A stretch of DNA of 64,000 nt from contig JBMNNE010000001.1 in assembly GCA_050953805.1 (NCBI GenBank), positions 186,079 through 250,078 of the forward strand, read 5' to 3'. Below the pieces are notes generated by a model. It was not told the origin of the DNA and searched no databases. It was given only the letters and a program-made list of their open reading frames with translations. Positions 30,346-51,773 of this stretch are shown piece by piece (the first letter of the stretch is position 1; every line of letters begins with the position of its first letter). The DNA is from Acholeplasmataceae bacterium (GTDB taxonomy: Bacteria; Bacillota_I; Bacilli_A; Acholeplasmatales; Acholeplasmataceae). A program made the translations under genes and the position numbers.

Positions 30346-30361
30346 ACAAACCCCTCTTTAC

Positions 30362-31741: not shown

Positions 31742-31745
31742 TTAA

Positions 31746-33524: not shown

Positions 33525-33526
33525 TC

Positions 33527-33838: not shown

Positions 33839-33850
33839 AAATTACACCTC

Positions 33851-34804: not shown

Positions 34805-35391
34805 TACTTAAATAACTCCTGTGATAATTTTGATTCGTATTCTCGTCTAACTTTATTAATTAATTCCATAAAATCAAAGTTTAAATCATAGTATTTACCA
34901 ACTATTAAAAAACCCGAATCAATTAAGGCTGGTTTGTCTGATAATTGGAACTTTGTTTTTAATTCTTTGTTGATTTTAGGAATTAAAAGTTCATATTTTT
35001 GATAATCTGATTTATTAACCATAATTTCTTCATTACCACTATATTCTTCTAATTTAATTAAATTAACAATTAGAGTTAAAAATTCTAAGTCAGGTAAAGA
35101 TTTTATTTTTTGATATGCTTGATCAAAAACTTGATTAATTACTTCGCTTTTAGCTCTTAAAAGTGTTTGTCTCCTTGCAATTTCTTGAGACATTTCTAGT
35201 GATTTAACTTTTAAATCAGCCTCAAGTTTAGCATCACCAATAATCTTATCGGCTTCTTTTTGAGCTTTTAAAATAATTTGGTTTTCTAATTCTTTGGCTT
35301 GTTGGCTAGCGACAGTTCTAATTTGCTTGGCTTCTTCCTTGCCTTGTGAAACAATGAAATCAGTTAGTTTTTCTTTTTCCAAATTAATCAC
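34804..35391 (-). CDS. ntpE: V-type ATPase subunit E (peripheral stalk)
   Basis: 195 aa. The N-terminal long charged helix (EEAKQIRTVASQQAKELENQIILKAQKEADKII) is typical of E subunits. Operon position supports the call. Confidence 0.8.
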   Translation of the reverse strand: MINLEKEKLTDFIVSQGKEEAKQIRTVASQQAKELENQIILKAQKEADKIIGDAKLEADLKVKSLEMSQEIARRQTLLRAKSEVINQVFDQAYQKIKSLPDLEFLTLIVNLIKLEEYSGNEEIMVNKSDYQKYELLIPKINKELKTKFQLSDKPALIDSGFLIVGKYYDLNFDFMELINKVRREYESKLSQELFK

Positions 35392-35397
35392 TCCTTA

Positions 35398-35874
35398 TTA
35401 AACTGGAATTGAAACCCACATTAAGATACTAACTAATAGTGATAAAATTGCATAAGTTTCAACAATCGCTGTCATTGTCATCCCGCGGGCTGTTAATGTT
35501 GGTTGTTTGGCAACCATATGAATTGCTGAAGCTGCAGCTTTACCTTGATAAATTGCTGAAACTAATCCACCAATAGCGATTGGTAATGCGGCATATAAAA
35601 ATGCCCTTCCTAATTCTTCATCTAGTGGAATAGCGTTACCACCCAAAATACCAATTTTAGCTAAAATTAACACTGACATTAGAAATCCATAAATTCCTTG
35701 AGTTCCTGGTAAAGCTTGTAAAATTAAGACACGACCAAATAATTCTGGTTTTTCTGAAATAACTCCGTTTCCTGCTTTACCAGCAATAGCGACTCCAATG
35801 GCTGATCCCGCACCAGCTAATGCTGTCGCTAAGGCAGCTCCTAATAACGCAAACACTAATCCTTCTGTAATCAT
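35398..35874 (-). CDS. ntpK: V-type ATPase proteolipid subunit K (duplicated 4-TM c subunit)
   Basis: 158 aa. LILQALPGTQGIYGF, IYQGKAAA and VETYAIL align with the E. hirae NtpK motifs LILQLLPGTQGLYGF, IAQGKVAA and VETYAIL. Confidence 0.9.
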   Translation of the reverse strand: MITEGLVFALLGAALATALAGAGSAIGVAIAGKAGNGVISEKPELFGRVLILQALPGTQGIYGFLMSVLILAKIGILGGNAIPLDEELGRAFLYAALPIAIGGLVSAIYQGKAAASAIHMVAKQPTLTARGMTMTAIVETYAILSLLVSILMWVSIPV

Positions 35875-35888
35875 AATCTATTTTCCTC

Positions 35889-37778
35889 CTATAAGTTATC
35901 TTCTATTTCATAAATATGATTGTATTGTAATTTTAATGGGGTAAAGGCATAGCCTCCACCATCATAAAATTTACCAAAAAATTCGATATATTGTAATCTA
36001 CTATCATGAACATAAGCTGATAGTAACCCCATAGCTAAATTAAATACGTGACCAATAATAAATATTATAATTCCAAATATATAAGTATACCAAGCTCCAG
36101 TAATGACCAAACTACCAATAATATTCATTGAATAAGCAATTACTCCCGATGATAGAGCTAAAGCTAAGATTCTAGAGTATGACAAGATATCTGATAAATA
36201 ACTAGTGATACCATATAATCCACCTAATCCGCTAGTAACTTTCTTAAAGATTTTTTTACTGCCACGACCGCTAAAGAGTAAAATCATTAACGCCCCAAGT
36301 CCAGCCATCACATATCCTAAAATTGCTAACTTCGGTAAAACCAATAAAATTACTAATCCGGGAATAATTAACATCCAACTAACTGCTTCAGCTAAGATTC
36401 CTAAATAGTCTTTTTCCTTAGCCATCCGAATCGATTTAATTATTAGAGCGACAAAGATATGAATCGTTCCTACAGCTAATGATGCAATCAACATTGGTAT
36501 CGGATCATTCATTGGATCGAATAATTGAAACTTCACCCCAAAGATAGCTTTTCCTATATCAAAAGAAATTCCAAAAACCGATCCATATAATACTCCAAAT
36601 AAAATTGAAGTAAAACTAGAATAAAATAAAACTTGAATCAATTTTTTCATATCACCTTTTGGCTTCTTAATAAATAAAAATAACCCAAATAAGATCGCCA
36701 TAACAATTCCGTATCCCCAATCTCCCATCATCATTCCAAAAAACATCCAGTACCAAACGGACATAACTGGATTTGGATCAATTTCATGATAACTCGGAAC
36801 ACTAAACATATTAGTAATGGTTTCAAATGGTGCCACAAATTTATTATTTTTATTATATGTTGGTGGATTTTCTTGTGGGAGTGGCTCTCTTAAGTCGATT
36901 TCATGATTACTAGTAACTCTCGCTACCGCTTTATTTAGTAAATCTTGTTGATCCTCTCTAACCCAACCTTCAAAATAAATTGTTCGTTCAGTGGTTTCGG
37001 CTTGATATTTTTTCAATTCTTTTTCTGATAACATTTGATCGCTTAACAATCTAATTTCATCAAGTGATAATGCAAAAGATTTTAATTTCTCTTCTAATTC
37101 ATTAATTATTTCTAAATTATTTTTAATTTTACTTTCTAATGCCTCAACTTCATCAGCAATTAAATGATTTAATAGTGGCAGTTTAACTTCATTAAAATTA
37201 ACTCCTTTTAAATCATTTAAAATATCATTTTTGCTAATAATAGCATATGCTAAACCGTTAGCATCGCTATCATATGTTTCATATAGTAAATTTTGCGACG
37301 CTAAAAAATTATTAAAAGACTCAATGTCTTGAGTTAATACTTGACCTAAATAAATATTAACGTAGGTGATGTTTGAAATATCTAATGGAGTAACACTTAA
37401 TTGTAACCATGGTTTATAAGCATTTATATTTTCATTAGCTATTGCATTTTCTTCTTTTAATTTGGAAACTTCAGCTAAGGTTTTTTCAATTTGGTCTAAC
37501 AGTTCTAATTGTTCTGGCTTAATATCTTGAAAACGATCATAATTAACAATTTGAAATTTTGGACTAAAAAATTTAGGTTTTTCTTCATATTTGCTTAATT
37601 CTTTAATTATTCGATTTGATCTAGAAATAATACTATCTTCATACTGAGTATCAACAACATGAGAACTACTACCTTCATTAGTAATCATTAAAACTCCATA
37701 TCTTTGTAGGGATCTTTTTAATTTATTTTCATATTCCTTTAAGACGAAAACTTTCGCCTTCTTCATTTTAACAATCAT
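35889..37778 (-). CDS. ntpI: V-type ATPase subunit I (a-type stator/ion channel)
   Basis: 629 aa. N-terminal soluble coiled-coil half and C-terminal polytopic half, including the conserved ...LSYSRILALALSS... arginine helix. Confidence 0.9.
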   Translation of the reverse strand: MIVKMKKAKVFVLKEYENKLKRSLQRYGVLMITNEGSSSHVVDTQYEDSIISRSNRIIKELSKYEEKPKFFSPKFQIVNYDRFQDIKPEQLELLDQIEKTLAEVSKLKEENAIANENINAYKPWLQLSVTPLDISNITYVNIYLGQVLTQDIESFNNFLASQNLLYETYDSDANGLAYAIISKNDILNDLKGVNFNEVKLPLLNHLIADEVEALESKIKNNLEIINELEEKLKSFALSLDEIRLLSDQMLSEKELKKYQAETTERTIYFEGWVREDQQDLLNKAVARVTSNHEIDLREPLPQENPPTYNKNNKFVAPFETITNMFSVPSYHEIDPNPVMSVWYWMFFGMMMGDWGYGIVMAILFGLFLFIKKPKGDMKKLIQVLFYSSFTSILFGVLYGSVFGISFDIGKAIFGVKFQLFDPMNDPIPMLIASLAVGTIHIFVALIIKSIRMAKEKDYLGILAEAVSWMLIIPGLVILLVLPKLAILGYVMAGLGALMILLFSGRGSKKIFKKVTSGLGGLYGITSYLSDILSYSRILALALSSGVIAYSMNIIGSLVITGAWYTYIFGIIIFIIGHVFNLAMGLLSAYVHDSRLQYIEFFGKFYDGGGYAFTPLKLQYNHIYEIEDNL

Positions 37779-38095
37779 AACGCAGTCACCTTATCAACGA
37801 CAAAATCAACTAACTTGTCAATATTTTTTGATGAGTTTTTGTGAACTGTCTTTTCAATATTAGTTAATTCTTCTTCGTGTTTTTTAGTTAGTTTTTCTAT
37901 TTTTTTAATTGATTCATCGTGAATTTTTTCAGCTTCGGCTTTGGCTTCTACCAAAATAGTATTACCTTTAGCCTCTGCATGTTTTTTTGAAGTTTCAAGA
38001 ATAATTTTTTGATCACCTTTAGCTTCATTTATTAAATTCTTAGCGTTATTTTCTGCTTGAATTATTTGATTTAAAACTGACAATTTAATCACCAC
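37775..38095 (-). CDS. ntpF: V-type ATPase small peripheral-stalk subunit (G/H-like; NtpF position in E. hirae operon)
   Basis: 106 aa Lys/Glu-rich helical protein. It is the first gene of the operon and overlaps ntpI by 4 nt. Confidence 0.65.
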   Translation of the reverse strand: MVIKLSVLNQIIQAENNAKNLINEAKGDQKIILETSKKHAEAKGNTILVEAKAEAEKIHDESIKKIEKLTKKHEEELTNIEKTVHKNSSKNIDKLVDFVVDKVTAL

Positions 38096-38186
38096 CTAAT
38101 AAAATAACAAATAATAATACTTCCTTATCATTTTATCACATATTGACTGGTATTAGTAATTTATTAATTACTATTATATTCTTTAG

Positions 38187-38215
38187 TAAAAAAAAGGAGA
38201 TACAAAATCTCCTTT
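38187..38215 (-). terminator. intrinsic terminator after the Na/Pi transporter gene
   Basis: AAGGAGAT-acaaa-ATCTCCTT with an 8-nt T-run on the minus strand. Confidence 0.8.
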
Positions 38216-38226
38216 ATATTTTATTC

Positions 38227-39915
38227 TTATCTACCAAAAACCGTAGCCTTTTTTGGCTGTGGTTGATAAATTAATAACACAGTCTCACTAATATTAGTTA
38301 AATGATCGGCAATTCTTTCTAAATTTGATAAAAGATCCGGATAATTATTTTCAGTTGATAATACGATTATCCCTTCTCTTAAGCGTTCAGTATGAGCGTG
38401 TTTAAATTCTTTTTCATAAATATCAGCTTGAATTTCATCGTCAATAACTTCTAATGCTAATTTAAGATTTTTCTTAGAAAATGCCGCAAATGAATTCCCC
38501 ATCATTTTTTCAATTAAATCGTAAAATCTATTTAATTCTTCGATCATAATTTGAGGCGTTTCTAATCCATATTCATATCTTTGACCAATTAACACACCGA
38601 TGTTATGCAAATGATCTCCAATTCTTTCTAAATCATTAATTATATCTAAATATCCCGAAAACAACAAAGAATCAGATTCGGTTAAATCATTCTTTTGAAC
38701 TAAATCAATCATATACTTATGTAACCTTTGATCATAGTCATCAATCTTGTTTTCTAGCTCTTCATTTAAATCTAAATATTTAGACTTATTTTCTAAGTGA
38801 AAATGTCGAATTGTTTGAAGATGTTCATAAACGATATCACTCATCATAAATATTCCGGATTTAGCATAACTAAGCGCAATACTAGGAGTACCAATTAAAA
38901 TTCTTTCATCTAAAACACGAGCTAACTCATCATCGCGTTTTTTATCTTTAATAATGATGGTTGTTAGTTTCACTATCGGATCTATAATCCAAACAAAAAC
39001 TAACATGGTAGCAATATTAATAAACATATGGATCAAAGCAATCGTCATCATCTTGGTATCTGGTGTTAAAAATTTATCTTCAATACTAACTAGTACCTTG
39101 GAAATGGGCGATATAAACGGCATGATTAATATTGTTCCTATAATATTATAAATTGTATGAATTAAAGCCACTCTTTTAGAATTTTTATTTCCTTTAATTG
39201 CTGCTAATCCACCAGTAATTGTAGTCCCAACGTTAGCTCCCAAAACCATAGGAATTGCTCCGATTACAGTAATCGTATCAATATCATATAGTTTTTGAAT
39301 TACCCCAACAGTACCTGATGATGATTGAATCAACATCGTAAATGCGGTTGAGAATCCGAAACCATAAATCCAAAATCCTTTAACACTAGGATCACCAAAG
39401 GTTCTTAATGCATCTTGAGCCCATTGGGCTTGAGCAATATCACTAACACCTTGTCCTAAAAATTGTAATCCAACAAATAATAGTCCAAAACCAATGATAC
39501 TTCTTCCAATATTTCTTGGCACCTTTCTTGAGAAAATAAAGAATATTAGGACACCAATTGCAATAAACCACAATCCCCATTTAGCTACCGGTAGACCAAT
39601 TAAAATTGAAGTAACTGTCGTTCCTATATTTGCTCCAATAACTACTGCAGCCGCTTGTTTTAAAGTCATTAAATCAACACTAACGAGTCCGATAATAATA
39701 ACGGTAACAGCTGATGATGATTGAATAAGAGCTGTTAATACTACCCCCACTAAAATACCTTTCCAAACAGTGTTGGTTGATTTTTCAATAATTATTTTTA
39801 ATTTATTTCCCGCAGCATTTTTAAGCGATGCCGACATTAACTCAATCGCATACAAGAATAATGCGAGTCCCCCAATAACTAACATTAAATTTTGAAATAT
39901 TTGTTCAGTTGTCAT
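38227..39915 (-). CDS. Na+/phosphate cotransporter family protein with C-terminal PhoU-like domains
   Basis: 562 aa. Duplicated Na_Pi_cotrans-type membrane repeats (IQSSSAVTVI.., LIQSSSGTVGV..). The cytoplasmic C-terminus has two ERI(G/A)DHL PhoU-like motifs. Confidence 0.8.
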   Translation of the reverse strand: MTTEQIFQNLMLVIGGLALFLYAIELMSASLKNAAGNKLKIIIEKSTNTVWKGILVGVVLTALIQSSSAVTVIIIGLVSVDLMTLKQAAAVVIGANIGTTVTSILIGLPVAKWGLWFIAIGVLIFFIFSRKVPRNIGRSIIGFGLLFVGLQFLGQGVSDIAQAQWAQDALRTFGDPSVKGFWIYGFGFSTAFTMLIQSSSGTVGVIQKLYDIDTITVIGAIPMVLGANVGTTITGGLAAIKGNKNSKRVALIHTIYNIIGTILIMPFISPISKVLVSIEDKFLTPDTKMMTIALIHMFINIATMLVFVWIIDPIVKLTTIIIKDKKRDDELARVLDERILIGTPSIALSYAKSGIFMMSDIVYEHLQTIRHFHLENKSKYLDLNEELENKIDDYDQRLHKYMIDLVQKNDLTESDSLLFSGYLDIINDLERIGDHLHNIGVLIGQRYEYGLETPQIMIEELNRFYDLIEKMMGNSFAAFSKKNLKLALEVIDDEIQADIYEKEFKHAHTERLREGIIVLSTENNYPDLLSNLERIADHLTNISETVLLIYQPQPKKATVFGR

Positions 39916-39994: not shown

Positions 39995-40021
39995 AAAAAA
40001 GCTTGCAAGTTATGCAAGCTT
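39995..40021 (-). terminator. intrinsic terminator after the 690-aa beta-propeller gene
   Basis: AAGCTTGCA-agtta-TGCAAGCTT with a T6 run on the minus strand. Confidence 0.8.
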
Positions 40022-40048: not shown

Positions 40049-42121
40049 TTACTGATTATCAATTGGATCTTGTTCAAATTTTAGCGGTTCTAGTAATTCT
40101 TTTTTAACTAAATTCCAAACAATATCTTCTTTCGGTGATAAAATGTGAACCACTTCATTAACTAATAGAATTTTTTCTGATCCAACAAATTTTTCATTAA
40201 ATAGGGATTCCTCAAGAACAAGTGGCTCTTCCAAACTAAAATCAACTTTAAACATTAACATTCTAGCTACACCGCGCCAATCATAGATGGTATATCTTTC
40301 GTCTGGTGAAATTTGAACTGTTTGATAATGATTCATAATGAAGCCAAACATTCCTAATTTTTTATTCATTAATAAATGTTCTCTTGGATTCCATAACGCT
40401 TCAGCCCATATGTATCCACCAAAATCTTCATATCTAAATTCAATAGTTTGAGTTGGTTCTTCGTCCCCAGTTCGATAAGCTGAGATTTTAATTCCCACTT
40501 GGCGATTGTTTTCAACCATATAGCCAAGTCCAATAGTGTTATTTTGTTCATCCCAAACAAATAAGACATTAGAAAATCCTGGTTCTTCAATCGCACTAAT
40601 AATTTTTGGATTTTTTGGATCGGTTAAATCGATAGTATATAACGGATCAGTTTGATAGAAAGTTACAATTTTAACAATATTTCCACTAAAAGTAACGCTC
40701 TTAACATCTTCATTTTCTTTACCTAAACCTTCAGTTAAATGAGATAGTAATTCTAAATTATCACTTTCAGCCCTAGTTTTTAAGATATAAAGGTGATTCG
40801 TTCTCCCTTTACCATAAGTTGTAACAACCCGAATCATACCTTCATGAACATCAAGGAAATATTGGTCACGTACATAACCTTCAACTTCTTGAGAACCGAC
40901 ATATTCTAGATTACCTTTTTCATCATATTTAACTGCTACAATTGATGAAGTATTGTAATATCCAATATCATCATTATAACCTCTCCATTTATCGTTAACT
41001 AAAATAATTAAATCGTTACCCATGTAAACAGTTTGGTTACTACCAACAAAACCAATTTGTCTAACCTTAAGTTCAGGATTAGCTAAATCCACTGAATGAA
41101 TTCTTGAAATTCGAGTTGAATTAATTTCACCTTTGAAATAATAAAATCTTCCAAAGTCAATTGGCATTGATGATGGAATTATTTTATTATCTTCATCAAA
41201 TGAAATATACTCATTAGTAAAAACATACAATATATTATCAACTAATCTTGAATCAATAATATAACCATCTACTTTTTGAGATTTAATAGGTGCAAAGGTT
41301 TCGGTATCAATAATATAATAGACTGATTCTGAACGGTAGTAATAATATTGAGACGCACTATATCGTCCATATAAACCAGTATCATAATAAGGTTCGCGAT
41401 ACATTTTATAACCAAAAACAACGAGCATATTTTCATATAAGACCATGTCAGAAAAAGTAAAATCGTCAATAATTACAGTTTCTGATTCCCCTTGATGATT
41501 ACCTGATTCATCCAATTTTACTTTGAAGATTCGATCACTATTACGTGGACCATAAAAAAAGTATTTACCACTACTGTGAATCTTAGCAATATCAGTTTCC
41601 AAGACTCCTTCAACTTGATTATAAGTATCGGATTGAGTACCACCTTTGGCTGCTGATTCAACATAAGACCCAGACCCTGAATAACTAACGTCATCCCCGT
41701 CAGTACCAATAAATGATGGTGGTGGCAGTACATTATCAAAAGTATTATATCGATACCCTTGATTATTATTGTTGTTTGAAATAATACTTAATTTTTCTTC
41801 AAAATCTTTAGAACTAGAAAAGGCATTGGCATTTTCCAAAGTCATACCAGTTGTTTCATTAATAGTTTTTCTAATTTTAAATGAGACTGGGTTACCTGCT
41901 TTTTCAAGACTAGTTCCACCTACTATTGTTAATGCTCCGACAACAAGTAATAATGTTAACGAAACAACATTTGACCTTAAAGCCGAAATGTTTAATTTAG
42001 ATCTTTCAATTCCACTTTTCTTTTGATAATTATGTAAGCGAATATTCCAAATTAAACGAACTAACATGATTGCAAATACAATGAAGGTAATTACTCCAGT
42101 AGTAATATAAAATCCTAACAT
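40049..42121 (-). CDS. membrane-anchored beta-propeller domain protein (PF09826/COG4880-like), paralogue 2
   Basis: 690 aa. N-terminal TM-loop-TM module, then NQVEGVLETDIAKIHSSGKYFFY and VTFYQTDPLYTIDLTDPKNPKIISAIEEPGFS. These match the family signatures TNxQxxGVDExDIVKTDG and VTFxQxDPLxxIDLSDPxNPK as I recall them. Confidence 0.7.
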   Translation of the reverse strand: MLGFYITTGVITFIVFAIMLVRLIWNIRLHNYQKKSGIERSKLNISALRSNVVSLTLLLVVGALTIVGGTSLEKAGNPVSFKIRKTINETTGMTLENANAFSSSKDFEEKLSIISNNNNNQGYRYNTFDNVLPPPSFIGTDGDDVSYSGSGSYVESAAKGGTQSDTYNQVEGVLETDIAKIHSSGKYFFYGPRNSDRIFKVKLDESGNHQGESETVIIDDFTFSDMVLYENMLVVFGYKMYREPYYDTGLYGRYSASQYYYYRSESVYYIIDTETFAPIKSQKVDGYIIDSRLVDNILYVFTNEYISFDEDNKIIPSSMPIDFGRFYYFKGEINSTRISRIHSVDLANPELKVRQIGFVGSNQTVYMGNDLIILVNDKWRGYNDDIGYYNTSSIVAVKYDEKGNLEYVGSQEVEGYVRDQYFLDVHEGMIRVVTTYGKGRTNHLYILKTRAESDNLELLSHLTEGLGKENEDVKSVTFSGNIVKIVTFYQTDPLYTIDLTDPKNPKIISAIEEPGFSNVLFVWDEQNNTIGLGYMVENNRQVGIKISAYRTGDEEPTQTIEFRYEDFGGYIWAEALWNPREHLLMNKKLGMFGFIMNHYQTVQISPDERYTIYDWRGVARMLMFKVDFSLEEPLVLEESLFNEKFVGSEKILLVNEVVHILSPKEDIVWNLVKKELLEPLKFEQDPIDNQ

Positions 42122-42239
42122 TTTTATTCCCTCCTTTACGGGATGCTTCTAATTTTTTAGAGGCACTTATAAAATGATAATTCATTTTCTATCCGCTTTT
42201 ATTATATAAAAATCCTATTTTAGACCGTTAGCTTTTCTC

Positions 42240-42269
42240 GCAACTTACATTTTTTAAGACACAAGTTAC
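42240..42269 (-). promoter_or_regulatory. LytTR-type direct-repeat box B (9 bp - N12 - 9 bp) upstream of paralogue 2
   Basis: + strand CAACTTACA-ttttttaagaca-CAAGTTACA. TATAAT (minus strand, 42205-42200) lies exactly 34 nt from the proximal repeat. Confidence 0.6.
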
Positions 42270-42277
42270 AGTTTTAT

Positions 42278-42317
42278 TAAAAAAACACTTCCGGATTAAA
42301 TTTTAAATCGGGAAGTG
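42278..42317 (-). terminator. intrinsic terminator after the 658-aa beta-propeller gene
   Basis: ACACTTCCGGATT / AATCGGGAAGTGT stem (one mismatch) followed by T7 on the minus strand. Confidence 0.75.
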
Positions 42318-42333
42318 TTTTCAATTTAATTTT

Positions 42334-44310
42334 TTATGGAATATCACTAGCTTCTTTTTTAACTAAGTCAATTGTCTGATTAAACTGTTTTAAATTGATA
42401 TTCCATGTAATCGTTTTTTCTCTAAAAATAATGTGTAACTGATTATTAATTAATAATAATTTTAGCGGATTAGTTTCAGTAAATCTTAATTGTGGTGGAT
42501 AATCAATTTCTTTGATTGGATTATCTAAATTAAAATCAACTTGATATAATAAAACTCTTGAATATTTACCACTAAACTTAGTTCCATCTTGAATAAAAGT
42601 TTCATCAAATCTTTTCATAATAAATCCAAAAACTCCAGCTTCGCGATCAATTAATAAATACATGTTTGGATAAGTCAAAATTTCACCATATAAAAATCCA
42701 ACTTGATAAAAATCATAAATAATCGTTTGAATTGGGATATAATTTCCATCTTGATAGACATTAATTACTAAAGCTTCCTGCGCTCCCGTTTCTTGATAAC
42801 GACGACCAATACCAATTGAATATTCATTATTCCACGGAATTAAAACATCAATTAAAATCATATCATCACTTATATCAATAATTTTCGGTTTTTTTGAATT
42901 ACTTAGATCAATCGTAATAATTGATTTAGTATTTATTTTGACGATATCTTCATGAAAATGAACTTTTTCAATTCTTTGACTAAGATCTTGATTAAAATAA
43001 GAAACTAATTTAAATTCATCACTATCAGGTTGAATTTTAAAAATATATAATGAATTGTTTTGTTTGTTTGGTGCCGCTACTGTCACCACTCTAATTTCAT
43101 CTTGATAGTAATCAATAAAATATTCACTAGGAACATATCCTAATACTTCATAAGAACCAACATATTGAAGGTTAGCTTCTTGATCATAATTAACTCCAAT
43201 GATCGTTGAACGATAGCCTCCGGTTGTGCCTGATGAATCCCAACGTGACATCGTTATTAAAATTAAACCGTCCTTCATATAAACAGCCTTACCTAATCCC
43301 AAAAATCCTATTGTCTTTGATTCAAGGTTATGAGAACTGAGATCAAAAGCATCAATTCTTGTAATCGCTCGCTCATTAGACGTGCTATTTAAATAATAGA
43401 CATTTTCAAAATCCGTTTCAAAATTAACTAAACTTCGATTAGAAGGAATTGAGCGATTACTAATTATATACAAAGTTTTATTATCAACTCTAGCACTAAG
43501 AAAATTATTTGTAAAATCAATATATTTAATAACTTCCAAAGTATTAGCATTCAAAAAATACATCCTTTGTGGAAATGGATTATATGGTCGTTCCCCTTCT
43601 TTTGGTTCATAACCAGGAATTATTTTATTACTTGGCTGAAATCCAATTACCGCTAAAATATCATCAACTAATAACAGTTGAGTAATATAAAATTGGTCGT
43701 CAAGTTGATTAATACCACAAATTGCAGTATGATTACCACTTGAATCAAGACCAATTTTATAGACAAGATTAGAATTTATTGGTGAATATAAATAGAAATT
43801 ACCAGAAGAATGAATTTGAACAATCTCACGATCATCAATTAAGACCGTCGGTTGACCAACTCCAATCACGCCATCGCCAATTTGATAACCCCCTTCACCT
43901 CTTTCATTTGGAGCGTTACCTTTAGCAAAACTATCAGGACTATCTGGAAGTGGACTTGGTAAACTTTCTTCTTCAATAAAAGTAATTATTTCTTCAACTT
44001 CTTTCATATCAGAAAAAAGTTTGGCATTTCGATAAACGACCCCATCTTTTTCATATGGTTTAAAAGTAAATAAGACACTCGGTTTTTGATTAACTGAGTT
44101 AATTCCCCCTAAAACTGATAAAATCCCAACTACAACTAAGAGAGACATTAAAACAAGATTCGATCTAAAAGCATGAATATTTAACTTAGAACGTTCAACC
44201 CCGCTCTTCTTTTGGTATTGTCTTAGTCGTAAATTCCATATTATTCTAATTACTAAAAAAGTGATTAACACGATTGTTAATACACCAACAGTAATGTAAA
44301 AAGCTAACAT
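42334..44310 (-). CDS. membrane-anchored beta-propeller domain protein (PF09826/COG4880-like), paralogue 1
   Basis: 658 aa. The N-terminal 70 aa are very similar to paralogue 2 (MLAFYITVGV..IWNLRLRQYQKKSGVERSKLNIHAFRSN). The rest is colinear but diverged. The start lies 1 nt after the LytTR gene stop. Confidence 0.65.
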   Translation of the reverse strand: MLAFYITVGVLTIVLITFLVIRIIWNLRLRQYQKKSGVERSKLNIHAFRSNLVLMSLLVVVGILSVLGGINSVNQKPSVLFTFKPYEKDGVVYRNAKLFSDMKEVEEIITFIEEESLPSPLPDSPDSFAKGNAPNERGEGGYQIGDGVIGVGQPTVLIDDREIVQIHSSGNFYLYSPINSNLVYKIGLDSSGNHTAICGINQLDDQFYITQLLLVDDILAVIGFQPSNKIIPGYEPKEGERPYNPFPQRMYFLNANTLEVIKYIDFTNNFLSARVDNKTLYIISNRSIPSNRSLVNFETDFENVYYLNSTSNERAITRIDAFDLSSHNLESKTIGFLGLGKAVYMKDGLILITMSRWDSSGTTGGYRSTIIGVNYDQEANLQYVGSYEVLGYVPSEYFIDYYQDEIRVVTVAAPNKQNNSLYIFKIQPDSDEFKLVSYFNQDLSQRIEKVHFHEDIVKINTKSIITIDLSNSKKPKIIDISDDMILIDVLIPWNNEYSIGIGRRYQETGAQEALVINVYQDGNYIPIQTIIYDFYQVGFLYGEILTYPNMYLLIDREAGVFGFIMKRFDETFIQDGTKFSGKYSRVLLYQVDFNLDNPIKEIDYPPQLRFTETNPLKLLLINNQLHIIFREKTITWNINLKQFNQTIDLVKKEASDIP

Positions 44311-44311
44311 T

Positions 44312-44824
44312 TTAGATTCCCCCTTTTTCTTTTAGAGCCCGTCTAAAAGGTTTTAAGTAGGAACGATTAACTTCTAATTTAATTCCACCAGGTAAACTCA
44401 GTTCAAGTTTTGAATTAAGTAACGGCTTAATATATTGAATCTTATCAAGATTAACAATATATGATTTAGAAATTCGGACGAATTTCAAATCAACTAACAT
44501 TTCTTCTAACTCAGCTAATGAATGTTTTAAAAAGATCGTCTTATAATAACTATTCATTAAGACAACTTCGTGTCCTAATGCTTCAAAATAAAGGCAGTTA
44601 GACGGATAAACTTTAAACCGATGGTCAATTGCTTCAAGCCAAAACTCGTTTTCTTGATCAATGATTTCGTTTAAAACTCTAAAAAAAGAGGCCTCATGTT
44701 TATTAGGTACTTGAAAGATGACATCGTTTGTCAAAACGACTGTTTCAAGTTCGATATTTGCATCTTCTTTAAGTAGTTTGATTAATTTTTCAGCTCTTTC
44801 TAAGCTTAAAACTAGTTTAATCAT
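44312..44824 (-). CDS. stand-alone LytTR-domain DNA-binding protein (no receiver domain)
   Basis: The C-terminal ~100 aa carry LytTR signatures (..CLYFEALGHEVVL..FVRISKSYIVNLDKIQYI..L.L..G..L.VNRSY). The N-terminal ~65 aa are unassigned. ATG 44824 is preferred because RBS AAGGTGGA sits 7 nt upstream; the ORF track starts at 44842. Confidence 0.75.
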   Translation of the reverse strand: MIKLVLSLERAEKLIKLLKEDANIELETVVLTNDVIFQVPNKHEASFFRVLNEIIDQENEFWLEAIDHRFKVYPSNCLYFEALGHEVVLMNSYYKTIFLKHSLAELEEMLVDLKFVRISKSYIVNLDKIQYIKPLLNSKLELSLPGGIKLEVNRSYLKPFRRALKEKGGI

Positions 44825-44879
44825 GTTCCTGTCCACCTTCATTATAATAAAATATTAAACTATAATTTTTATTTATTTA

Positions 44880-44909
44880 TAAGTTACACTAAATTAACCG
44901 TAACTTACA
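44880..44909 (-). promoter_or_regulatory. LytTR-type direct-repeat box A (9 bp - N12 - 9 bp) upstream of the LytTR gene
   Basis: + strand TAAGTTACA-ctaaattaaccg-TAACTTACA. TATAAT (minus strand, 44846-44841) lies 33 nt from the proximal repeat. Confidence 0.6.
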
Positions 44910-45061
44910 ACACCCTTCTGTATAAATAAGTTTATCATATTATTTAATTATTCTCTATCCCTTGCTAAACTAAAATAAAATAATTTGATAACATAATTTA
45001 CTATAAAAATTCAATTATCATCAAATTTATTATATGATAATACCAACAGGAGGGATTGTAC

Positions 45062-45820
45062 ATGTTTCAAGTTTTAACATTCGCTGAACAAATTATTCCA
45101 TCAAGAAGTATTAATCATTTATATATTTATTTAGATATCGTTTTTTTAGTAGTGCTATTATCCTTATTTGTAGTTACTAGAAGATATTTAACTTTACTTT
45201 TTAGTCTATTAGGTGGAATTATATATTTTATTGCTGATTATGGATTTTTCTATTTATTATTTGAAGAACGCATCGTAACTGGGGCTAACCCTTTTTGGTT
45301 TTTACTCTGGCTATCAATGAGTTATGGTATTACTAATTTCGCTTTTATTTGGCTTGCCTTAAAAAAAGATAAAAACTTAATTGAGTTTGCCTCATTTATT
45401 TTCTTGTGGTGGATTGCCTGTCCTCTAATTTCAGGAAATACTCCAGGAGCTGCTGGTAATATTGAAATTAGTCGAACTACTAGTTATCACGGAGGAATGG
45501 CAATTATGTTAATAGTTGGTTATTTAATTGTGATTATCCTTAATTTAACCAAGTATAAAGATAATAAGTTGCCACTTACTAGAATGTTAATTATTGGTGT
45601 TGTTGTCCAGTTCGGATGGGAGTTTGCCTTATATGTATCCGGAATTAGACCACATAATGATAATAGTCTTCAAACATTACTTTTAAACTCCTTAGTTGAG
45701 ACTAATTTGGGCATCCCCTATATCTTTTTTATCCAAATGTTTATTCAAAAATATTTTACCGAGGATTTAAAACGAAAAACGCCCCATAAAGACATTAATC
45801 TTGAATTAGAAACAACATGA
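45062..45820 (+). CDS. polytopic membrane protein of unknown function (about 7 TM)
   Basis: Hydrophobic 252-aa ORF. RBS AGGAGGG sits 8 nt upstream of ATG 45062; the ORF-track start 45056 is a TTG inside the spacer. Divergent from the LytTR gene. Confidence 0.6.
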   Translation: MFQVLTFAEQIIPSRSINHLYIYLDIVFLVVLLSLFVVTRRYLTLLFSLLGGIIYFIADYGFFYLLFEERIVTGANPFWFLLWLSMSYGITNFAFIWLALKKDKNLIEFASFIFLWWIACPLISGNTPGAAGNIEISRTTSYHGGMAIMLIVGYLIVIILNLTKYKDNKLPLTRMLIIGVVVQFGWEFALYVSGIRPHNDNSLQTLLLNSLVETNLGIPYIFFIQMFIQKYFTEDLKRKTPHKDINLELETT

Positions 45821-45828
45821 TATATATC

Positions 45829-45857
45829 AAAAAGGAAGTTAACAAACTTCCTTTTTT
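45829..45857. terminator. bidirectional terminator between convergent genes
   Basis: AAAAA-GGAAGTT-aaca-AACTTCC-TTTTTT. Confidence 0.8.
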
Positions 45858-45876
45858 AATATTATTTTAAATCTAT

Positions 45877-46917
45877 TTATTGCCAAGCTTTATCTTCTAA
45901 ATATGGATGTTTTTTCTCTAATATATCTTTTGCCAATTTATCCGCATTAGCTTTACCCGGGTTTTCTAGATAAAATGTAACAAAACCAAAAGGAGTAAAA
46001 TCCAAATACCTTAGACTGATTTGATATTGATCAATATCACTTTGATCTAAAATAGTTGTTAAGTCTAAATTTTCGTTAATTACTTCATCAAAGTATTTCC
46101 CCTGAATAATAATTTTAATATGGGTTTGCCCTTTATAGCCAATTGATTTAATCTTGGGGCACTTTTCTAATTTTGTAACTAATTCTTGAAGTTCTGCTTC
46201 ACTTATTTTTTCCTTAAAAACAACATCAACCCCTAAACTCCATTGAAAGGTTGTCACCTTTTTTAAGTTTTTAATTCCTTTGAAATCCTCAATCGTTAAA
46301 TCATTAATATAAAATTCACGAATGTATTCTTCTTTTATACTAAATATAATACTTTCTTGAAGTGAGGAAATTGTCCTAATTATAACTTCAATCTTTTTAA
46401 TATCTTTAATCTCTTCCTTTTTAACTGTAATTATTTCAATCCATCCAGTAAGTGCTGCAAAATGCCCTTCAAAACGATTAATATTTAAAGTTAACGTGTT
46501 TCCTTTTTTAGACAAGGCATAAGCATAATTTTTAGAAACATTAGGTTCAAATTTATAATAAAAAATTAAAATATGATCTTCAAAAAAAGCATCATTATAA
46601 TTTTCAATAATCGTGTTAAATTGTTGATCATCTGGGTAATTATATGTATAAAGATTAGGTTTTTTATTTTGATTAATTTTTTCTTTTAATTCTTCGTGGG
46701 TATATGCATAGAAAAAGACATATCCGCTTTCTTCAGTTTGGTAAACATCAAATGCTTCAAGTTGATCATCTTTTAATAAATAATTTTTGCCGCCATCACG
46801 TGAAAAAGGAACTAGTTCACTATTGTCAAAATTAAGTTGATAATTTTTTTCAGTAGTTTTGCATCCAACTATTGAAAGAAGCAATATAGCGATTAAGAAA
46901 ACCAACACTCTTCTCAT
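45877..46917 (-). CDS. lipoprotein of unknown function
   Basis: Start at ATG 46917 (MRRVLVFLIAILLLSIVGCKTT, lipobox) with RBS AGGGGTGA 5 nt upstream. I recognised no family. Confidence 0.6.
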   Translation of the reverse strand: MRRVLVFLIAILLLSIVGCKTTEKNYQLNFDNSELVPFSRDGGKNYLLKDDQLEAFDVYQTEESGYVFFYAYTHEELKEKINQNKKPNLYTYNYPDDQQFNTIIENYNDAFFEDHILIFYYKFEPNVSKNYAYALSKKGNTLTLNINRFEGHFAALTGWIEIITVKKEEIKDIKKIEVIIRTISSLQESIIFSIKEEYIREFYINDLTIEDFKGIKNLKKVTTFQWSLGVDVVFKEKISEAELQELVTKLEKCPKIKSIGYKGQTHIKIIIQGKYFDEVINENLDLTTILDQSDIDQYQISLRYLDFTPFGFVTFYLENPGKANADKLAKDILEKKHPYLEDKAWQ

Positions 46918-46970
46918 AGAATCACCCCTATTTTCGAGATGTCTTTCCAAAAATAACATCTTTCATATTA

Positions 46971-46999
46971 ATTATAGAAAAGATATATTAATTTGTCCA
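46971..46999 (-). promoter_or_regulatory. sigma-70-type promoter of the lipoprotein gene
   Basis: Minus strand TGGACA (46999-46994), 17 nt spacer, TATAAT (46976-46971). It lies 11 nt downstream of box C. Confidence 0.55.
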
Positions 47000-47010
47000 C
47001 TTTTACTTCA

Positions 47011-47040
47011 TAACTTACATTAATTTAGGGATAAATTACA
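47011..47040 (-). promoter_or_regulatory. LytTR-type direct-repeat box C (9 bp - N12 - 9 bp) upstream of the lipoprotein gene
   Basis: + strand TAACTTACA-ttaatttaggga-TAAATTACA. The proximal repeat is exactly 34 nt from the TATAAT at 46976-46971. Confidence 0.6.
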
Positions 47041-47049
47041 GTATATTAT

Positions 47050-47216
47050 TTATGTTCTTTTTCTAAATTTACAATTGATTGTTTCATTTCTCATCAACCG
47101 GCCTTTAGAACCGATAACTCGATGGCACGACTGGCTTTTGGATTTCCTATCGCTACTGCAATTTTTATAACTGCGAGTTTCTCCATAAGAAATCCGCAAA
47201 AGTTCGGACACGCTTT
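47050..47216 (-). pseudogene. ogt: decayed remnant of methylated-DNA-protein-cysteine methyltransferase (ogt/MGMT C-terminal domain)
   Basis: Minus-strand translation gives ELLRISYGETRSYKN in one frame and IAVAIGNPKASRA in another. SCHRVIGSKGRL then reads in the first frame and overlaps the PKASRA nucleotides. So there is a frameshift plus an internal deletion of the segment before the PCHR active site, and no N-terminal domain. Confidence 0.7.
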
Positions 47217-48129: not shown

Positions 48130-51100
48130 TTATTTTATTGTTGGATAATCTCCATTTTCATAATCTAGTGTATCTAAATTCCAAATTTCTTCTGACCAAC
48201 CTAAAGTATTGGTATAAAATGATTTACTATTTAAGTCATTTACTGTAATGATAGGATATTCACTTTGCATGCTTTCGTTATTGACTTTTAAAATAACATC
48301 TTCAGCAATATATGAATTGTTAATATTGTTAATTTCTCCGCCATTTCCAATCAATCCGTTCACTCTAGTGAATGAAGTTGTGGTTACATTTATTGTTGTT
48401 CCACTTACATATGAATTATTTATATTATTTATATAAGTATTATTTCCAACCAATCCCCCTACAGTAACAGATGAATTTGTTATTATATTTATCGTTGTTC
48501 CGTTCACATATGAATTATTTACAGATGTAATAAGATTGGTTTCTCCGATAAATCCCCCAGCAACAGCAATTGCATTGGTGTTTATTGATATTGTTGTTCC
48601 ACTTACATATGAATTTCTAATCTCGGCATACGACTCATAATATAAAACTTTCGCAATGAAAGCCCCCAAACAAATTTCGCCTTTCGTTTTAATAGAAATA
48701 TAGGCGTCAACTAATCCTAGACCATCTATTAAACCACCAAAATTGTTAAATAATGCTATAAATTGTTGGTTTTCTGATTCGTTTTCCAACACAATAGATA
48801 AATTTTTAATTTCAAAACCTCTACCATATAGCACTCCGATAAAATTATAAGGCATCCATTTATGGTTCATTGCATTTATATCATTTACAAGTTGATAAGC
48901 ATATCCGCTTTCCATATTTTGTAATTCTTCTATCGTAGAAATGTTTCTTATCGTTAATGAATTAACAACAAATAAAACCTTATTAACATTACTAATTGTT
49001 TTTGTAGAATGTTCTACTCCTTCTATTCCATATGTTATTGATTTTACACTTACCGATATACTATTAGCGTATAAGCCTCCTTTTTGTTTTAGTTTAATTG
49101 TATTGTTATCTATTTTTTCAAGTTCCGTTGAATCATAAATGTGGTCACTAAGTCCTTGATTATCAGCTAAAACGACACCACTAATATCATAACCAGTTGG
49201 ATTGTCTAGATTAATAATTAAATAATTATCTTCTTCTTTCACAAAATAATCTAAACCATTCGCTTCTTCAATTGATAAAATACCAACATCACCTAATATT
49301 AAAATACTGTCTGAATATGTCAAACTTATAGGCTGATATTTCATTTGATCAAAAGCCAAATAATTAATTGCTGTAATTTGAACATCATATGTTCCACCCT
49401 CAAATTCAGGGATAAATTTAAAAATGGCATGAGCAGCAGTATTTGATGTTACAACATCAATTTTTTGTTCATTAATATAAAAAGCTTTAATATTAAGTTT
49501 TGCAGGATTCTCATAAAAAACTTGAACATGCACTTCTTCTCCAACCTTTGGATACGAATTGTTTAAAATGGTGATTCCCGTTATTTCAATTGGAGTCGCT
49601 AAGGTAGCTATTGGATTGGATAAATTTAATTGCCGAGCTCCCCCTCCATCATTTAAATCATATGTATAAACAACTCTAATTTCATATAAGTTATTTGATA
49701 ATAATCCAGTGAACTCTCTTAATGTTAAGTCTTCTAAACTTTTTACTTCTTCAGTTCCTTTATATAACTTGATTGAAGTAATCTCTCCTACTGAATCAGT
49801 GTCTTCTACATCTAAATCAAATTCAATTGATATTTGGGTTTCTACTACATCTATTATTTCTACTGTTGGAGTTGCTTTTGCTTTAGTTGTTACTTGATGT
49901 GTATCAATTGCTGTTCGTTCACCAACTCCATCATTTAGATCATATGTATAAACAACTCTAATTTCATATAAGTTATTTGATAATAATCCAGTGAACTCTC
50001 TTAATGTTAAGTCGGTTAAACTTTTTACTTCTTCAGTTCCTTTATATAACTTGATTGAAGTAATCTCTCCTACTGAATCAGTGTCTTCTACATCTAAATC
50101 AAATTCAATTGATGTTTGAGTTTCTACTACATCTACTATTTCTATTATTGGAGTTGCTTTTGCTTTAGTTGTTACTTGATGTGTATCAATTGCTGTTTGT
50201 TCGCCAAATCCATCATTTAAATCATATGTATAAACAACTCTAATTTCATATAAGTTATTTGATAATAATCCAGTGAACTCTCTTAATGTTAAGTCGGTTA
50301 AACTTTTTACTTCTTCAGTTCCTTTATATAACTTGATTGAAGTAATCTCTCCTACTGAATCAGTGTCTTCTACATCTAAATCAAATTCAATTGATATTTG
50401 GGTTTCTACTACATCTATTATTTCTACTGTTGGAGTTGCTTTTGCTTTAGTTGTTACTTGATGTGTATCAATTGCTGTTTGTTCGCCAAATCCATCATTT
50501 AAATCATATGTATAAACAACTCTAATTTCATATAAGTTATTTGATAATAATCCAGTGAACTCTCTTAATGTTAAGTCGGTTAAACTTTTTACTTCTTCAG
50601 TTCCTTTATATAACTTAATTGAAGTTAATGAACCTGTTTCAGCATTATCATCGATAACTATGTCAAAGGCAATTGAATCTTGAGTTTCTTTAACATTGGT
50701 TAAATTTATCATCTTCTTAGTATAAAAAGCATGTTTTTCTAATACTACTAATTGACTTCCATTACCATCTAATGAATCATAACTAGTAACTATAGCATAT
50801 TGATAAAGTGTATCTTGTTTTAATTTATCAAATAACACTTCATTATTACCAACAACTAATTCTTTTTCTTTAATCATATTTTCTCCGTCATATAAATAGA
50901 TCATTAATGGACTTTCATATAATTCAATCAAATTTGCCGGATCAGCTACTTGTGCGTTTAATGAAATGCTAGTCGTATCAACTTTTAAATTACTTGTAGA
51001 TGCATATGGAAGCACATCATATGTCACTCCCACTTTAACCGTTCTATCACCAGCAAAAATGGCATCTTTAATTTCAGTACCATCAATATATTTAATCGCA

Positions 51101-51600
51101 TCAATTGTATAATCTTTAATTCCTGATACATCGCCTGAATTCGCTTTTAAAATTAAGTTTTCAGAATCAGATCCATCTTGAAATTGATAGTTTTGATAAA
51201 ATACTCCATTTAATGTAAACGACAATATAACAAAATTATCGGGATTTAATAATTTTACTGTAATATAAAAATCCTTATTTTTAGTTGTATAATATTCAAC
51301 ATCTTCACTTGTTATTACATCTAATTTATTTTCAACTTCATCTTCAATAGTACTTCCATCAAAGTTATCATAAGGATCTTCTTGATCGATCTCATCATCA
51401 TCTTGATCGGTGTCATTATCATTTTCACCAAAAAATAATGGTGAATTATAAACCATTTGTTTTTCCAAAGTATCAGTAACTTTCATACCTTGATAAACCG
51501 GAATTGCTTTTTCTTTTTTATTTTCTTCTTTATCACAAGCTGATAAAAAGAAAAATAATAAGAAAAATGCTAAAACAGTTAACATTTTTTTAATTCGCAT
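48130..51600 (-). CDS. large surface lipoprotein with four 94-aa tandem repeats and C-terminal GLUG-motif repeats
   Basis: Lipobox FFLSACDKEE. Four copies of ..ETQxSIEFDLDVEDTDSVGEITSIKLYKGTEEVKSLTDLTLREFTGLLSNNLYEIRVVYTYDLNDG.. C-terminal repeats NSYVSGTTI....GG(F/L)(I/V)G are GLUG-like. ATG 51600 is preferred, because GTG 51609 lies inside RBS AGAGGTGAGG. Confidence 0.8.
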   Translation of the reverse strand: MRIKKMLTVLAFFLLFFFLSACDKEENKKEKAIPVYQGMKVTDTLEKQMVYNSPLFFGENDNDTDQDDDEIDQEDPYDNFDGSTIEDEVENKLDVITSEDVEYYTTKNKDFYITVKLLNPDNFVILSFTLNGVFYQNYQFQDGSDSENLILKANSGDVSGIKDYTIDAIKYIDGTEIKDAIFAGDRTVKVGVTYDVLPYASTSNLKVDTTSISLNAQVADPANLIELYESPLMIYLYDGENMIKEKELVVGNNEVLFDKLKQDTLYQYAIVTSYDSLDGNGSQLVVLEKHAFYTKKMINLTNVKETQDSIAFDIVIDDNAETGSLTSIKLYKGTEEVKSLTDLTLREFTGLLSNNLYEIRVVYTYDLNDGFGEQTAIDTHQVTTKAKATPTVEIIDVVETQISIEFDLDVEDTDSVGEITSIKLYKGTEEVKSLTDLTLREFTGLLSNNLYEIRVVYTYDLNDGFGEQTAIDTHQVTTKAKATPIIEIVDVVETQTSIEFDLDVEDTDSVGEITSIKLYKGTEEVKSLTDLTLREFTGLLSNNLYEIRVVYTYDLNDGVGERTAIDTHQVTTKAKATPTVEIIDVVETQISIEFDLDVEDTDSVGEITSIKLYKGTEEVKSLEDLTLREFTGLLSNNLYEIRVVYTYDLNDGGGARQLNLSNPIATLATPIEITGITILNNSYPKVGEEVHVQVFYENPAKLNIKAFYINEQKIDVVTSNTAAHAIFKFIPEFEGGTYDVQITAINYLAFDQMKYQPISLTYSDSILILGDVGILSIEEANGLDYFVKEEDNYLIINLDNPTGYDISGVVLADNQGLSDHIYDSTELEKIDNNTIKLKQKGGLYANSISVSVKSITYGIEGVEHSTKTISNVNKVLFVVNSLTIRNISTIEELQNMESGYAYQLVNDINAMNHKWMPYNFIGVLYGRGFEIKNLSIVLENESENQQFIALFNNFGGLIDGLGLVDAYISIKTKGEICLGAFIAKVLYYESYAEIRNSYVSGTTISINTNAIAVAGGFIGETNLITSVNNSYVNGTTINIITNSSVTVGGLVGNNTYINNINNSYVSGTTINVTTTSFTRVNGLIGNGGEINNINNSYIAEDVILKVNNESMQSEYPIITVNDLNSKSFYTNTLGWSEEIWNLDTLDYENGDYPTIK
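49645..50772 (-). repeat. 282-bp in-frame tandem repeat, four copies, three and a half nearly identical at DNA level
   Basis: The string CCATCATTTAAATCATATGTATAAACAACTC recurs at about 49645, 49927, 50209 and 50491, exactly 282 bp apart, with only scattered SNPs. The copy at the highest coordinates diverges after about 50625. Confidence 0.9.
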
Positions 51601-51773
51601 ATACCTCACCTCTTATTTTTAATATTTATAACAAGATACCTTTATTTTATATTAACAAACAAAAAAATACAATACCCCTCATATAATTTACCCAAATTAT
51701 AATAATTATCAATTATGGTTGTATAATCTAAACTAATTCGAGAAAAAACACCGTTTTTGATTTCGATTTAACA

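Follow-up and report, generated by a model that had tools for sequence, protein, structure and literature searches.

LytTR regulatory systems (LRS) comprise a LytTR regulator that lacks a receiver domain, a membrane-protein inhibitor encoded adjacent to it on the downstream side, and positive autoregulation, which is triggered when the membrane inhibitor is deleted (Zou et al. 2018, PMC6193735). Their repeats are two 9-bp direct repeats lying 11-13 bp apart (usually 12) and 4-11 bp (typically 10) upstream of the -35 element of the operon. Streptococcus mutans carries HdrRM, BrsRM and three others. The partners published so far are small, span the membrane several times and belong to DUF3021 or DUF2154, although this is not a required trait and 'putative novel LRS' with unrelated membrane proteins have been listed; LRS and the extracytoplasmic function (ECF) sigma factor/anti-sigma systems were reported to have no partner domains in common (PMC6193735). 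Here we describe a related system in a 64-kb stretch of DNA from an uncultured Acholeplasmataceae bacterium (contig JBMNNE010000001.1, positions 186,079 to 250,078; hereafter the window), in which three paired-repeat boxes precede the genes for a LytTR regulator, a beta-propeller membrane protein and a lipoprotein. All the sequence-level features of an LRS are present at this locus, which appears to be an LRS variant with a beta-propeller membrane partner, not previously described and here duplicated.

The resemblance to the S. mutans systems begins with gene order, in that a soluble, receiver-less regulator is encoded first and the membrane protein gene follows immediately. It extends to the 9-12-9 direct repeats, which lie about 10 bp from the -35 position there and 10-11 bp from it here, and to the presence of extra target promoters with the same repeats. 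The published LRS repeats (ACCACTTAC; Listeria GCATCTTAG) have an ACTTA core in common with the half-site described here, in the same orientation. The differences lie mainly in the proteins. Whereas the S. mutans partners are small, those found here are 634-728 aa long, with two transmembrane (TM) helices and a large extracellular PF09826 beta-propeller; this genome has two such paralogues, each under its own box, and the regulator is extended at its N-terminus by a further domain of about 65 aa. Inhibition and autoactivation would be expected in the present system by analogy with S. mutans.

Paired repeats upstream of three genes

The box scan of this organism's DNA covered the window and gave three exact matches to YAAVTTACA-N12-YAAVTTACA, all on the plus strand, against none in 100 dinucleotide-preserving shuffles. 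On the minus strand, along which the downstream genes are transcribed, all three take the form TGTAAnTTr, 12-bp spacer, TGTAAnTTr:

44880..44909, minus strand: box A, an exact pattern match, with distal repeat TGTAAGTTA (44909..44901), 12-bp spacer and proximal repeat TGTAACTTA (44888..44880); most likely the autoregulatory operator, as predicted, of the operon of the LytTR gene and propeller paralogue 1
42241..42270, minus strand: box B, an exact pattern match, with distal repeat TGTAACTTG (42270..42262), 12-bp spacer and proximal repeat TGTAAGTTG (42249..42241); most likely, on the same prediction, the operator of the promoter of propeller paralogue 2
47011..47040, minus strand: box C, an exact pattern match, with distal repeat TGTAATTTA (47040..47032), 12-bp spacer and proximal repeat TGTAAGTTA (47019..47011); predicted operator of the lipoprotein promoter, with the least secure dependence on the regulator of the three

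It is the pairing of the repeats that constitutes the signal, since the single 8-mer core shows no enrichment in the window (19 observed, 20.3 expected). The half-site TG[TC]AA[CGT]TT[AG] occurs 18 times in the 64 kb on either strand, and the only pairs of half-sites no more than 60 bp apart are boxes A, B and C, each spaced by exactly 21 bp. A pair score from a position weight matrix (PWM) reached 16 or more three times, compared with 0.07 times per shuffled window, which is a rough control as the matrix was built with the window's own sites. All three boxes are intergenic and lie in one shared orientation, upstream of the minus-strand LytTR, propeller-2 and lipoprotein genes. Their spacers and flanks show no sequence likeness to one another, which shows that the boxes did not arise by duplication of a single segment. 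Neither Rfam nor tRNA scanning gave a match in the 64-kb window.

These results bear out the original prediction, made by inspection of the same DNA, that the window holds three 9-N12-9 boxes located between genes and oriented alike towards minus-strand genes, and the sequences that it quoted were correct. Its coordinates stand for boxes A and C, while those of box B are shifted by 1 nt (42241-42270 in place of 42240-42269). The functional orientation is the reverse complement of its consensus, TG(T/C)AA(C/G)TTA along transcription.

Promoters and the short leader

Each box is followed by a -10 element at nearly the same distance:

44841..44846, minus strand: box-A promoter, -10 hexamer TATAAT lying 33 nt downstream of the proximal repeat; the sequence at the -35 position, AAAATT, is poor
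44839..44832, minus strand: Shine-Dalgarno sequence AAGGTGGA of the LytTR gene, directly abutted by the box-A -10
42201..42206, minus strand: box-B promoter, -10 hexamer TATAAT lying 34 nt downstream of the proximal repeat; the sequence at the -35 position, AACGGT, is poor
46971..46999, minus strand: lipoprotein promoter TGGACA-17 bp-TATAAT, found by promoter scan with 11 of 12 matches
46971-46976, minus strand: -10 hexamer of that promoter, 34 nt from the proximal repeat of box C; the -35 element TGGACA is 11 bp from the same repeat

The distances of 33, 34 and 34 nt between TATAAT and the proximal repeats of boxes A, B and C had been proposed earlier and were found again here. At box A, the 33 nt to the -10 correspond to 10 bp between the repeat and the -35 position. 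The poor -35 sequences at boxes A and B would fit promoters that depend on an activator.

A caveat in the original prediction, that the leader at box A would be very short, proved to be real and recurs in relatives. The abutment of -10 and Shine-Dalgarno (TATAATgAAGGTGGA; window 44832-44846) is repeated in six related loci (L001, L004, L005, L055, L057 and L058), and the distance from the -10 to the ATG is only 13-16 nt in most Acholeplasmataceae relatives, with 24-26 nt in L002 and L003. Because this overlap of promoter and ribosome-binding site is conserved, it is probably meaningful.

The regulator

44312..44824, minus strand: LytTR regulator gene, 170 aa; Pfam PF04397, E=5.8e-19, residues 70-164

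The LytTR domain of this protein matches the PDB profile 3d6w (E=2.7e-13), and an AlphaFold model of the regulator (pLDDT 89, the predicted local distance difference score) gave Foldseek matches to 3d6w, a LytTR domain from B. cereus, and to AgrA 4g4k, with template-modelling scores of 0.82-0.83; against AgrA LytTR structures the scores were 0.81-0.83. The protein has no hydrophobic segment and is thus soluble, and its MIKL start is common to all homologues. The N-terminal domain of about 65 aa (69 residues before the LytTR domain; residues 1-68, window 44620-44824) was confidently modelled as beta-alpha-beta-beta-alpha-beta. A fold search with it gave only non-significant ACT-like matches, to the regulatory domains of aspartate kinases (E 0.07-0.3), and the ACT assignment was dropped for that reason.

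The boxes had been likened to the sites of AgrA, ComE and PlnC. This likeness holds for the DNA-binding fold and for the 9-bp repeats with a 12-bp spacer upstream of the -35, as seen in AgrA (P2/P3), the ComE boxes and PlnC/PlnD (for the site architecture see also PMC6193735). It does not extend to signal input, as neither Pfam nor NCBIfam found a receiver domain in the regulator (no Response_reg match), which has no phospho-acceptor, and the LytR/BtsR model matches are confined to its C-terminal LytTR part. No histidine kinase or peptide-pheromone gene adjoins the regulator gene, whose neighbours in the window encode the propeller paralogues, a seven-transmembrane (7-TM) protein without a family, the lipoprotein and a PadR protein, and no kinase genes were seen among the called genes of the related loci examined for them (the L055-L059 set). 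Input to the regulator must consequently come by another route, and its features match the LRS class.

The propeller paralogues

42334..44310, minus strand: propeller paralogue 1, 658 aa; Pfam PF09826, E=2.8e-18; starts 1 nt after the LytTR stop
42279..42322, minus strand: intrinsic terminator ending the LytTR-propeller-1 operon, a GC-rich stem with U7; RNA fold -19 kcal/mol, z = -5.9, with 0 of 200 shuffles as good
40049..42121, minus strand: propeller paralogue 2, 690 aa; Pfam PF09826, E=8.5e-68; architecture as in paralogue 1
about 39995-40021: hairpin and T-run terminator after propeller paralogue 2

Propeller 1 is laid out as TM1, a basic cytoplasmic loop, TM2 and an extracellular PF09826 beta-propeller. 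The only terminator in the LytTR-propeller-1 unit lies after propeller 1, and propeller 2 forms a monocistronic unit. The two paralogues are 59% identical over the N-terminal 70 aa (TM1, loop and TM2) and 25-33% identical over the rest, the ectodomain; a juxtamembrane Asn/Leu motif in the loop is conserved family-wide. Relatives have only one propeller gene, to which propeller 2 is orthologous (53% identity to the L001 propeller). In the window, the insertion of a divergent paralogue (propeller 1) separates the regulator gene from propeller 2, which has a box of its own. Pfam identified only PF09826 (Beta_propel) in the propeller membrane proteins, and neither DUF3021 nor DUF2154. A literature search returned nothing relevant on PF09826/COG4880 (one unrelated pipeline paper), and nothing linking a beta-propeller with LytTR or with anti-sigma/ECF systems.

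The pairing of regulator and propeller is not peculiar to this genome. Wherever the DNA reached far enough beyond the regulator gene (47 related loci), the next gene encodes a protein of 634-728 aa with two N-terminal hydrophobic segments and a basic loop between them, and tblastn matches to the window propellers were obtained in about 30 loci. The gap between the two genes is -20 to +37 nt, with the exception of 157 nt in L002. Because the pairing runs throughout the 47 informative loci, we take box, LytTR gene and propeller gene to be the ancestral unit. In relatives the single propeller gene is followed by the same Na/Pi cotransporter gene, with V-ATPase genes in L057-L059. The lengths of the open reading frames (ORFs) at 29701-39915 of the window (562, 629, 158, 195, 317 and 592 aa) mirror those of the Na/Pi cotransporter and V-type ATPase operon of L057 (5643-12309) and L058 (3317-10602); these ORF lengths suggest that the order LytTR, propeller, Na/Pi cotransporter, V-ATPase is conserved in the Acholeplasmataceae.

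The box in related genomes

A scan of species-representative genomes gave 49 loci with relatives of the regulator, from Acholeplasmataceae, Izemoplasmatales, other Mycoplasmatota and two metagenome-assembled genomes labelled Bacillales. Identity to the regulator is 53-84% in the Acholeplasmataceae and about 32-54%, over partial matches, in the other groups. The pattern TGYA-N17-YGYA lies upstream of the LytTR gene in 41 of the 49 loci (background 0.165 per kb), in 40 of them between -83 and -98 relative to the LytTR start codon and at -132 in L016, where the start codon is mis-set. Per alignment column, both repeats and a -10 element lying 34 nt further downstream carry the most information, whereas the flanks and the intervening 31 nt carry little. 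Five further metagenomic loci obtained through exact-protein look-ups (L055-L059) all have the box, L056 being a near-identical contig of L055 and the box sequences of L059 being those of L002. The phylogenetic footprint that had been called for to check the boxes thus revealed a homologous box at the same position in 41/49 loci and in 5/5 further ones.

The boxes of the five Acholeplasmataceae loci among the 49, each with a 12-bp spacer, are:

L001: distal repeat TGCAACTTA, proximal repeat TGTAAGTTG
L002: distal repeat TGTAACTTA, proximal repeat TGTAACTTA
L003: distal repeat TGCAACTTA, proximal repeat TGCAACTTA
L004: distal repeat TGCAACTTA, proximal repeat CGCAACTAA
L005: distal repeat TGCAACTTA, proximal repeat TGCAACATA

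In these five loci a -10 hexamer (TATAAT, TAAACT or TAGAAT) follows 32-34 nt after the box, and in L055 the box is again a pure direct repeat, with TGCAACTTA twice. The perfect direct repeats of L002, L003 and L055 have no dyad symmetry, which excludes a purely palindromic reading of the site and means that the partly palindromic look of box A and L001 is a by-product of their self-complementary core, TAA(G/C)TTA.

The more distant, Izemoplasmatales-type box has the form TG(T/C)A(A/G)(T/C)TT(G/A), 12 bp, TGTA(T/A/G)(G/A)A(T/C)A, and is followed by an extended -10 (TGnTAnnnT) whose hexamer lies 34 nt from the proximal repeat. The two consensus sequences are connected by intermediate forms, such as those of L009, L023 and L047. 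When a PWM specific to this group was run over about +/-8 kb at 36 Izemoplasmatales-type loci, it scored 35 sites, all of them autoregulatory. In L006-L049 the spacer is itself strongly conserved (about -89 to -78 relative to the start of the LytTR gene, e.g. L007 4536-4547), whereas the spacers of the Acholeplasmataceae are not conserved and contain no -10-like element. As a separate observation, five of the loci without a TGYA-N17-YGYA box (L028, L029, L031, L032 and L041) share another conserved element, ctgtttta..ctattttgtttc.., then TGTAAAATA near the ribosome-binding site.

A second box, TGCAACTTA-12-TGTAAGTTGcga, precedes the propeller gene in L002/L059, where a terminator-like hairpin follows the regulator gene; a box directly before a propeller gene is hence not unique to the genome studied here. 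Autoregulation and control of propeller 2, as first proposed, are supported by the footprint in 41/49 loci and by this second box, and both are predictions from sequence.

Matches outside this group of organisms came from a pattern scan of metagenome contigs, which returned at least 120 stretches, mostly chance or tandem-repeat matches; the organism studied here is not among the matches listed. Two that are, L116 and L130, come from unrelated metagenomes and were found by the DNA pattern alone, and are canonical LytTR+DUF3021 (BrsRM-type) operons:

L116, 4916-5905: LytTR+DUF3021 operon; box TGTAATTTA-12-TGTAAGTTA, 34 nt upstream of the -10 hexamer
L130, 5232-6197: LytTR+DUF3021 operon; box TGTAACTTA-12-TGTAACTTA, 34 nt upstream of the -10 hexamer

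Their operators, TGTAAyTTA-12-TGTAAsTTA, are nearly those of the window; as both share the half-site and the 34-nt geometry, the operator type is common to classical LRS. In L116 the LytTR+DUF3021 pair is followed by an ORF resembling an ABC-transporter ATPase (not Pfam-checked).

Propeller homologues beside ECF sigma genes

Distant PF09826 homologues (24-31% identity, from Clostridia-type assemblies) were sampled at four loci, and all four lie directly downstream of an ECF sigma gene, in the position of an anti-sigma factor:

L060, 3484-6010: ECF-linked PF09826 protein P0054
L062, 3473-6043: ECF-linked PF09826 protein P0069
L063, 2497-5061: ECF-linked PF09826 protein P0050
L064, 2351-5058: ECF-linked PF09826 protein P0061

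In the three inspected (P0054, P0069 and P0050), a cytoplasmic head of about 45-65 residues precedes a single TM helix and the propeller, a shape like that of anti-sigma factors. A closer homologue with two TM helices, P0041, is again preceded by a LytTR gene. As homologues adjoin either ECF genes (in Clostridia-type assemblies) or LytTR genes, the PF09826 family appears to partner both ECF sigma factors and LytTR proteins, which lends independent but indirect support to the view that the propeller proteins are membrane partners of transcription factors and not mere targets. Pairs of ECF sigma and membrane anti-sigma factors resemble the present system in that a small regulator gene is followed by a gene for a membrane protein with an extracytoplasmic sensor domain. 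They differ in that the regulator here is a LytTR protein and not a group-4 sigma-70 factor (regions 2 and 4), and in that the propeller here is carried on a two-TM hairpin with a cytoplasmic loop of about 25 aa, without an N-terminal anti-sigma domain.

Other genes of the window

45877..46917, minus strand: lipoprotein gene, 346 aa; signal peptide, lipobox LSIVGC
45062-45820, plus strand: 7-TM multi-pass membrane protein, 252 aa; divergent from the LytTR gene

The lipoprotein belongs to no Pfam or NCBIfam family. Six homologues were found, and an AlphaFold model built on a six-sequence alignment (pLDDT 77) had no significant fold match in the PDB. The terminator at the end of its gene is bidirectional and also serves the convergent 7-TM gene. 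Control of the lipoprotein had been predicted from box C, and box C is indeed an exact match; it appears to be lineage-specific, since the three homologues examined in other genomes (37-43% identity) have no upstream box, and the lipoprotein as a conserved target was rejected on the same grounds.

The suggestion that box A also faces the divergent 7-TM gene as a target was not upheld. The box has the opposite orientation, lies about 150 nt away and has no plus-strand -10 at the conserved distance, and control of this gene by box A was rejected. The 7-TM protein belongs to no Pfam or NCBIfam family; tblastn gave no match to it in L001-L049, and its gene is not among the called upstream genes in L055-L059.

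A PadR gene lies upstream of box C. Between the two, a 53-aa ORF (47050-47211, minus strand) has a weak match to methylated-DNA-protein-cysteine methyltransferase (ogt) and looks like a gene remnant. Further along, the ORF at 48130-51609 (minus strand) contains 3.5 tandem copies of a 282-bp unit with 97% identity (49645-50625). The units encode near-identical 94-aa repeats in a 1159-aa protein with a lipoprotein-like N-terminus, which is likely to be a variable surface protein.

Discussion

The reading that we favour, and consider quite probable, is that the boxes are operator sites of the receiver-less 170-aa LytTR protein, which would activate its own operon, propeller 2 and the lipoprotein gene, and that the propellers act as membrane inhibitors or sensors. 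Two LytTR domains would bind both 9-bp repeats, TG(T/C)AA(C/G/T)TT(A/G), set 21 bp apart from centre to centre. With the proximal repeat ending 10-11 bp upstream of the -35, the regulator would activate sigma-70-type promoters whose -10 lies 33-34 nt downstream. Box A would drive the LytTR-propeller-1 operon, giving positive autoregulation, box B would drive propeller 2 and box C the lipoprotein gene. The propeller proteins are proposed to keep the regulator sequestered or inactive through the conserved loop or hairpin until an extracellular cue reaches the propeller and, as the propellers are themselves among the induced products, their induction would then reset the system.

Several points weigh against this proposal. 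A transcript starting 7 nt past the box-A -10 would begin inside the Shine-Dalgarno sequence, which makes translation of the regulator from the induced transcript uncertain, and the near-consensus box-C promoter (TGGACA-17-TATAAT) may work without an activator. Box C has, moreover, no counterpart at the lipoprotein homologues examined. The half-sites of the Izemoplasmatales-type box are identical at only about 5-6 of 9 positions, and its conserved 12-bp spacer, GTGTAAAATAAA, resembles an extended -10, which simple activator binding does not explain. Eight of the 49 loci (L028, L029, L031, L032, L034, L035, L037 and L041) have no TGYA-N17-YGYA box. Finally, with only a loop of about 25 aa on the cytoplasmic side, the propeller protein offers little surface on which a regulator could be sequestered.

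The small size of that loop would be accommodated if the boxes were LytTR operators and the propellers only targets, with a role at the surface or envelope, the regulator being a one-component protein controlled through its N-terminal domain, for example by a small ligand. The confident model of this domain with its weak ACT-like fold matches is compatible with such control, as is the arrangement in L002/L059, where a terminator sets the propeller gene apart as a transcription unit of its own. The ACT-like matches are, however, not significant, and the regulator and propeller genes stay together in 47/47 loci, which span several orders and mostly show translational coupling of the two. Also against this reading are a TM hairpin and loop that are better conserved between the paralogues than the ectodomain, and homologous propellers in the anti-sigma position beside ECF sigma genes. 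We therefore regard it as unlikely, though deserving of consideration.

It seems much less probable that the LytTR protein binds the boxes and represses, or switches between promoters. The near-consensus -35 and -10 already present at box C would suit a repressed promoter, and the extended -10-like spacer of the Izemoplasmatales-type boxes would be occluded if the protein were bound. Against this, the spacers of the Acholeplasmataceae have no conserved element of that kind, and the -35 sequences at boxes A and B (AAAATT and AACGGT) are as poor as those that activator-dependent promoters would have. The repeats end 10-11 bp upstream of the -35, which is the position of activation in LRS and other LytTR systems (PMC6193735), and it is this placement, together with the analogy with LRS, that leads us to prefer activation over repression.

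Hardly credible is the idea that a different factor binds the boxes (a dimeric repressor on a partial palindrome, or the nearby PadR protein) or that they are functionless products of chance or duplication: the core TAA(G/C)TTA equals its reverse complement apart from a G/C swap, so that box A and the L001 and L002-second boxes can also be read as inverted repeats (e.g. GCAACTTA...TAAGTTGC) and the PadR gene does lie upstream of box C, but direct repeats without dyad symmetry occur in L002, L003, L004, L005 and L055, the box co-occurs with a LytTR gene in 41/49 loci and in the unrelated LytTR+DUF3021 operons, and chance or duplication is at odds with the dissimilar flanks of boxes A, B and C and the absence of matches in shuffles.

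Returning to the reading in which the propellers inhibit the LytTR regulator, a broader conjecture can be added, which we put forward tentatively and with less than even confidence. The PF09826 ectodomain may be a portable extracytoplasmic sensor that has become connected to two unrelated kinds of transcription factor, to ECF sigma factors through an N-terminal anti-sigma-like head in Clostridia and to receiver-less LytTR proteins through a two-TM hairpin and short conserved loop in Acholeplasmatales and Izemoplasmatales. The window would then hold a two-sensor LRS, its paralogues alike in the hairpin, divergent in the ectodomain and each preceded by a LytTR box, in which the overlap of -10 and Shine-Dalgarno biases the induced transcript towards the inhibitor over the regulator.

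To our knowledge, LRS are widespread but little studied; we know of none for which an activating signal has been identified, and the partners known to us are small and have no obvious sensor domain. A large extracellular beta-propeller partner would offer a concrete ligand-binding domain to study, in a variant that is conserved across Acholeplasmataceae, Izemoplasmatales and relatives. The presence of the PF09826 ectodomain beside ECF sigma genes as well links LRS with ECF/anti-sigma systems. For annotation, two 'beta-propeller domain-containing' proteins, a 'LytTR family regulator' and a hypothetical lipoprotein become one testable module with predicted operators.

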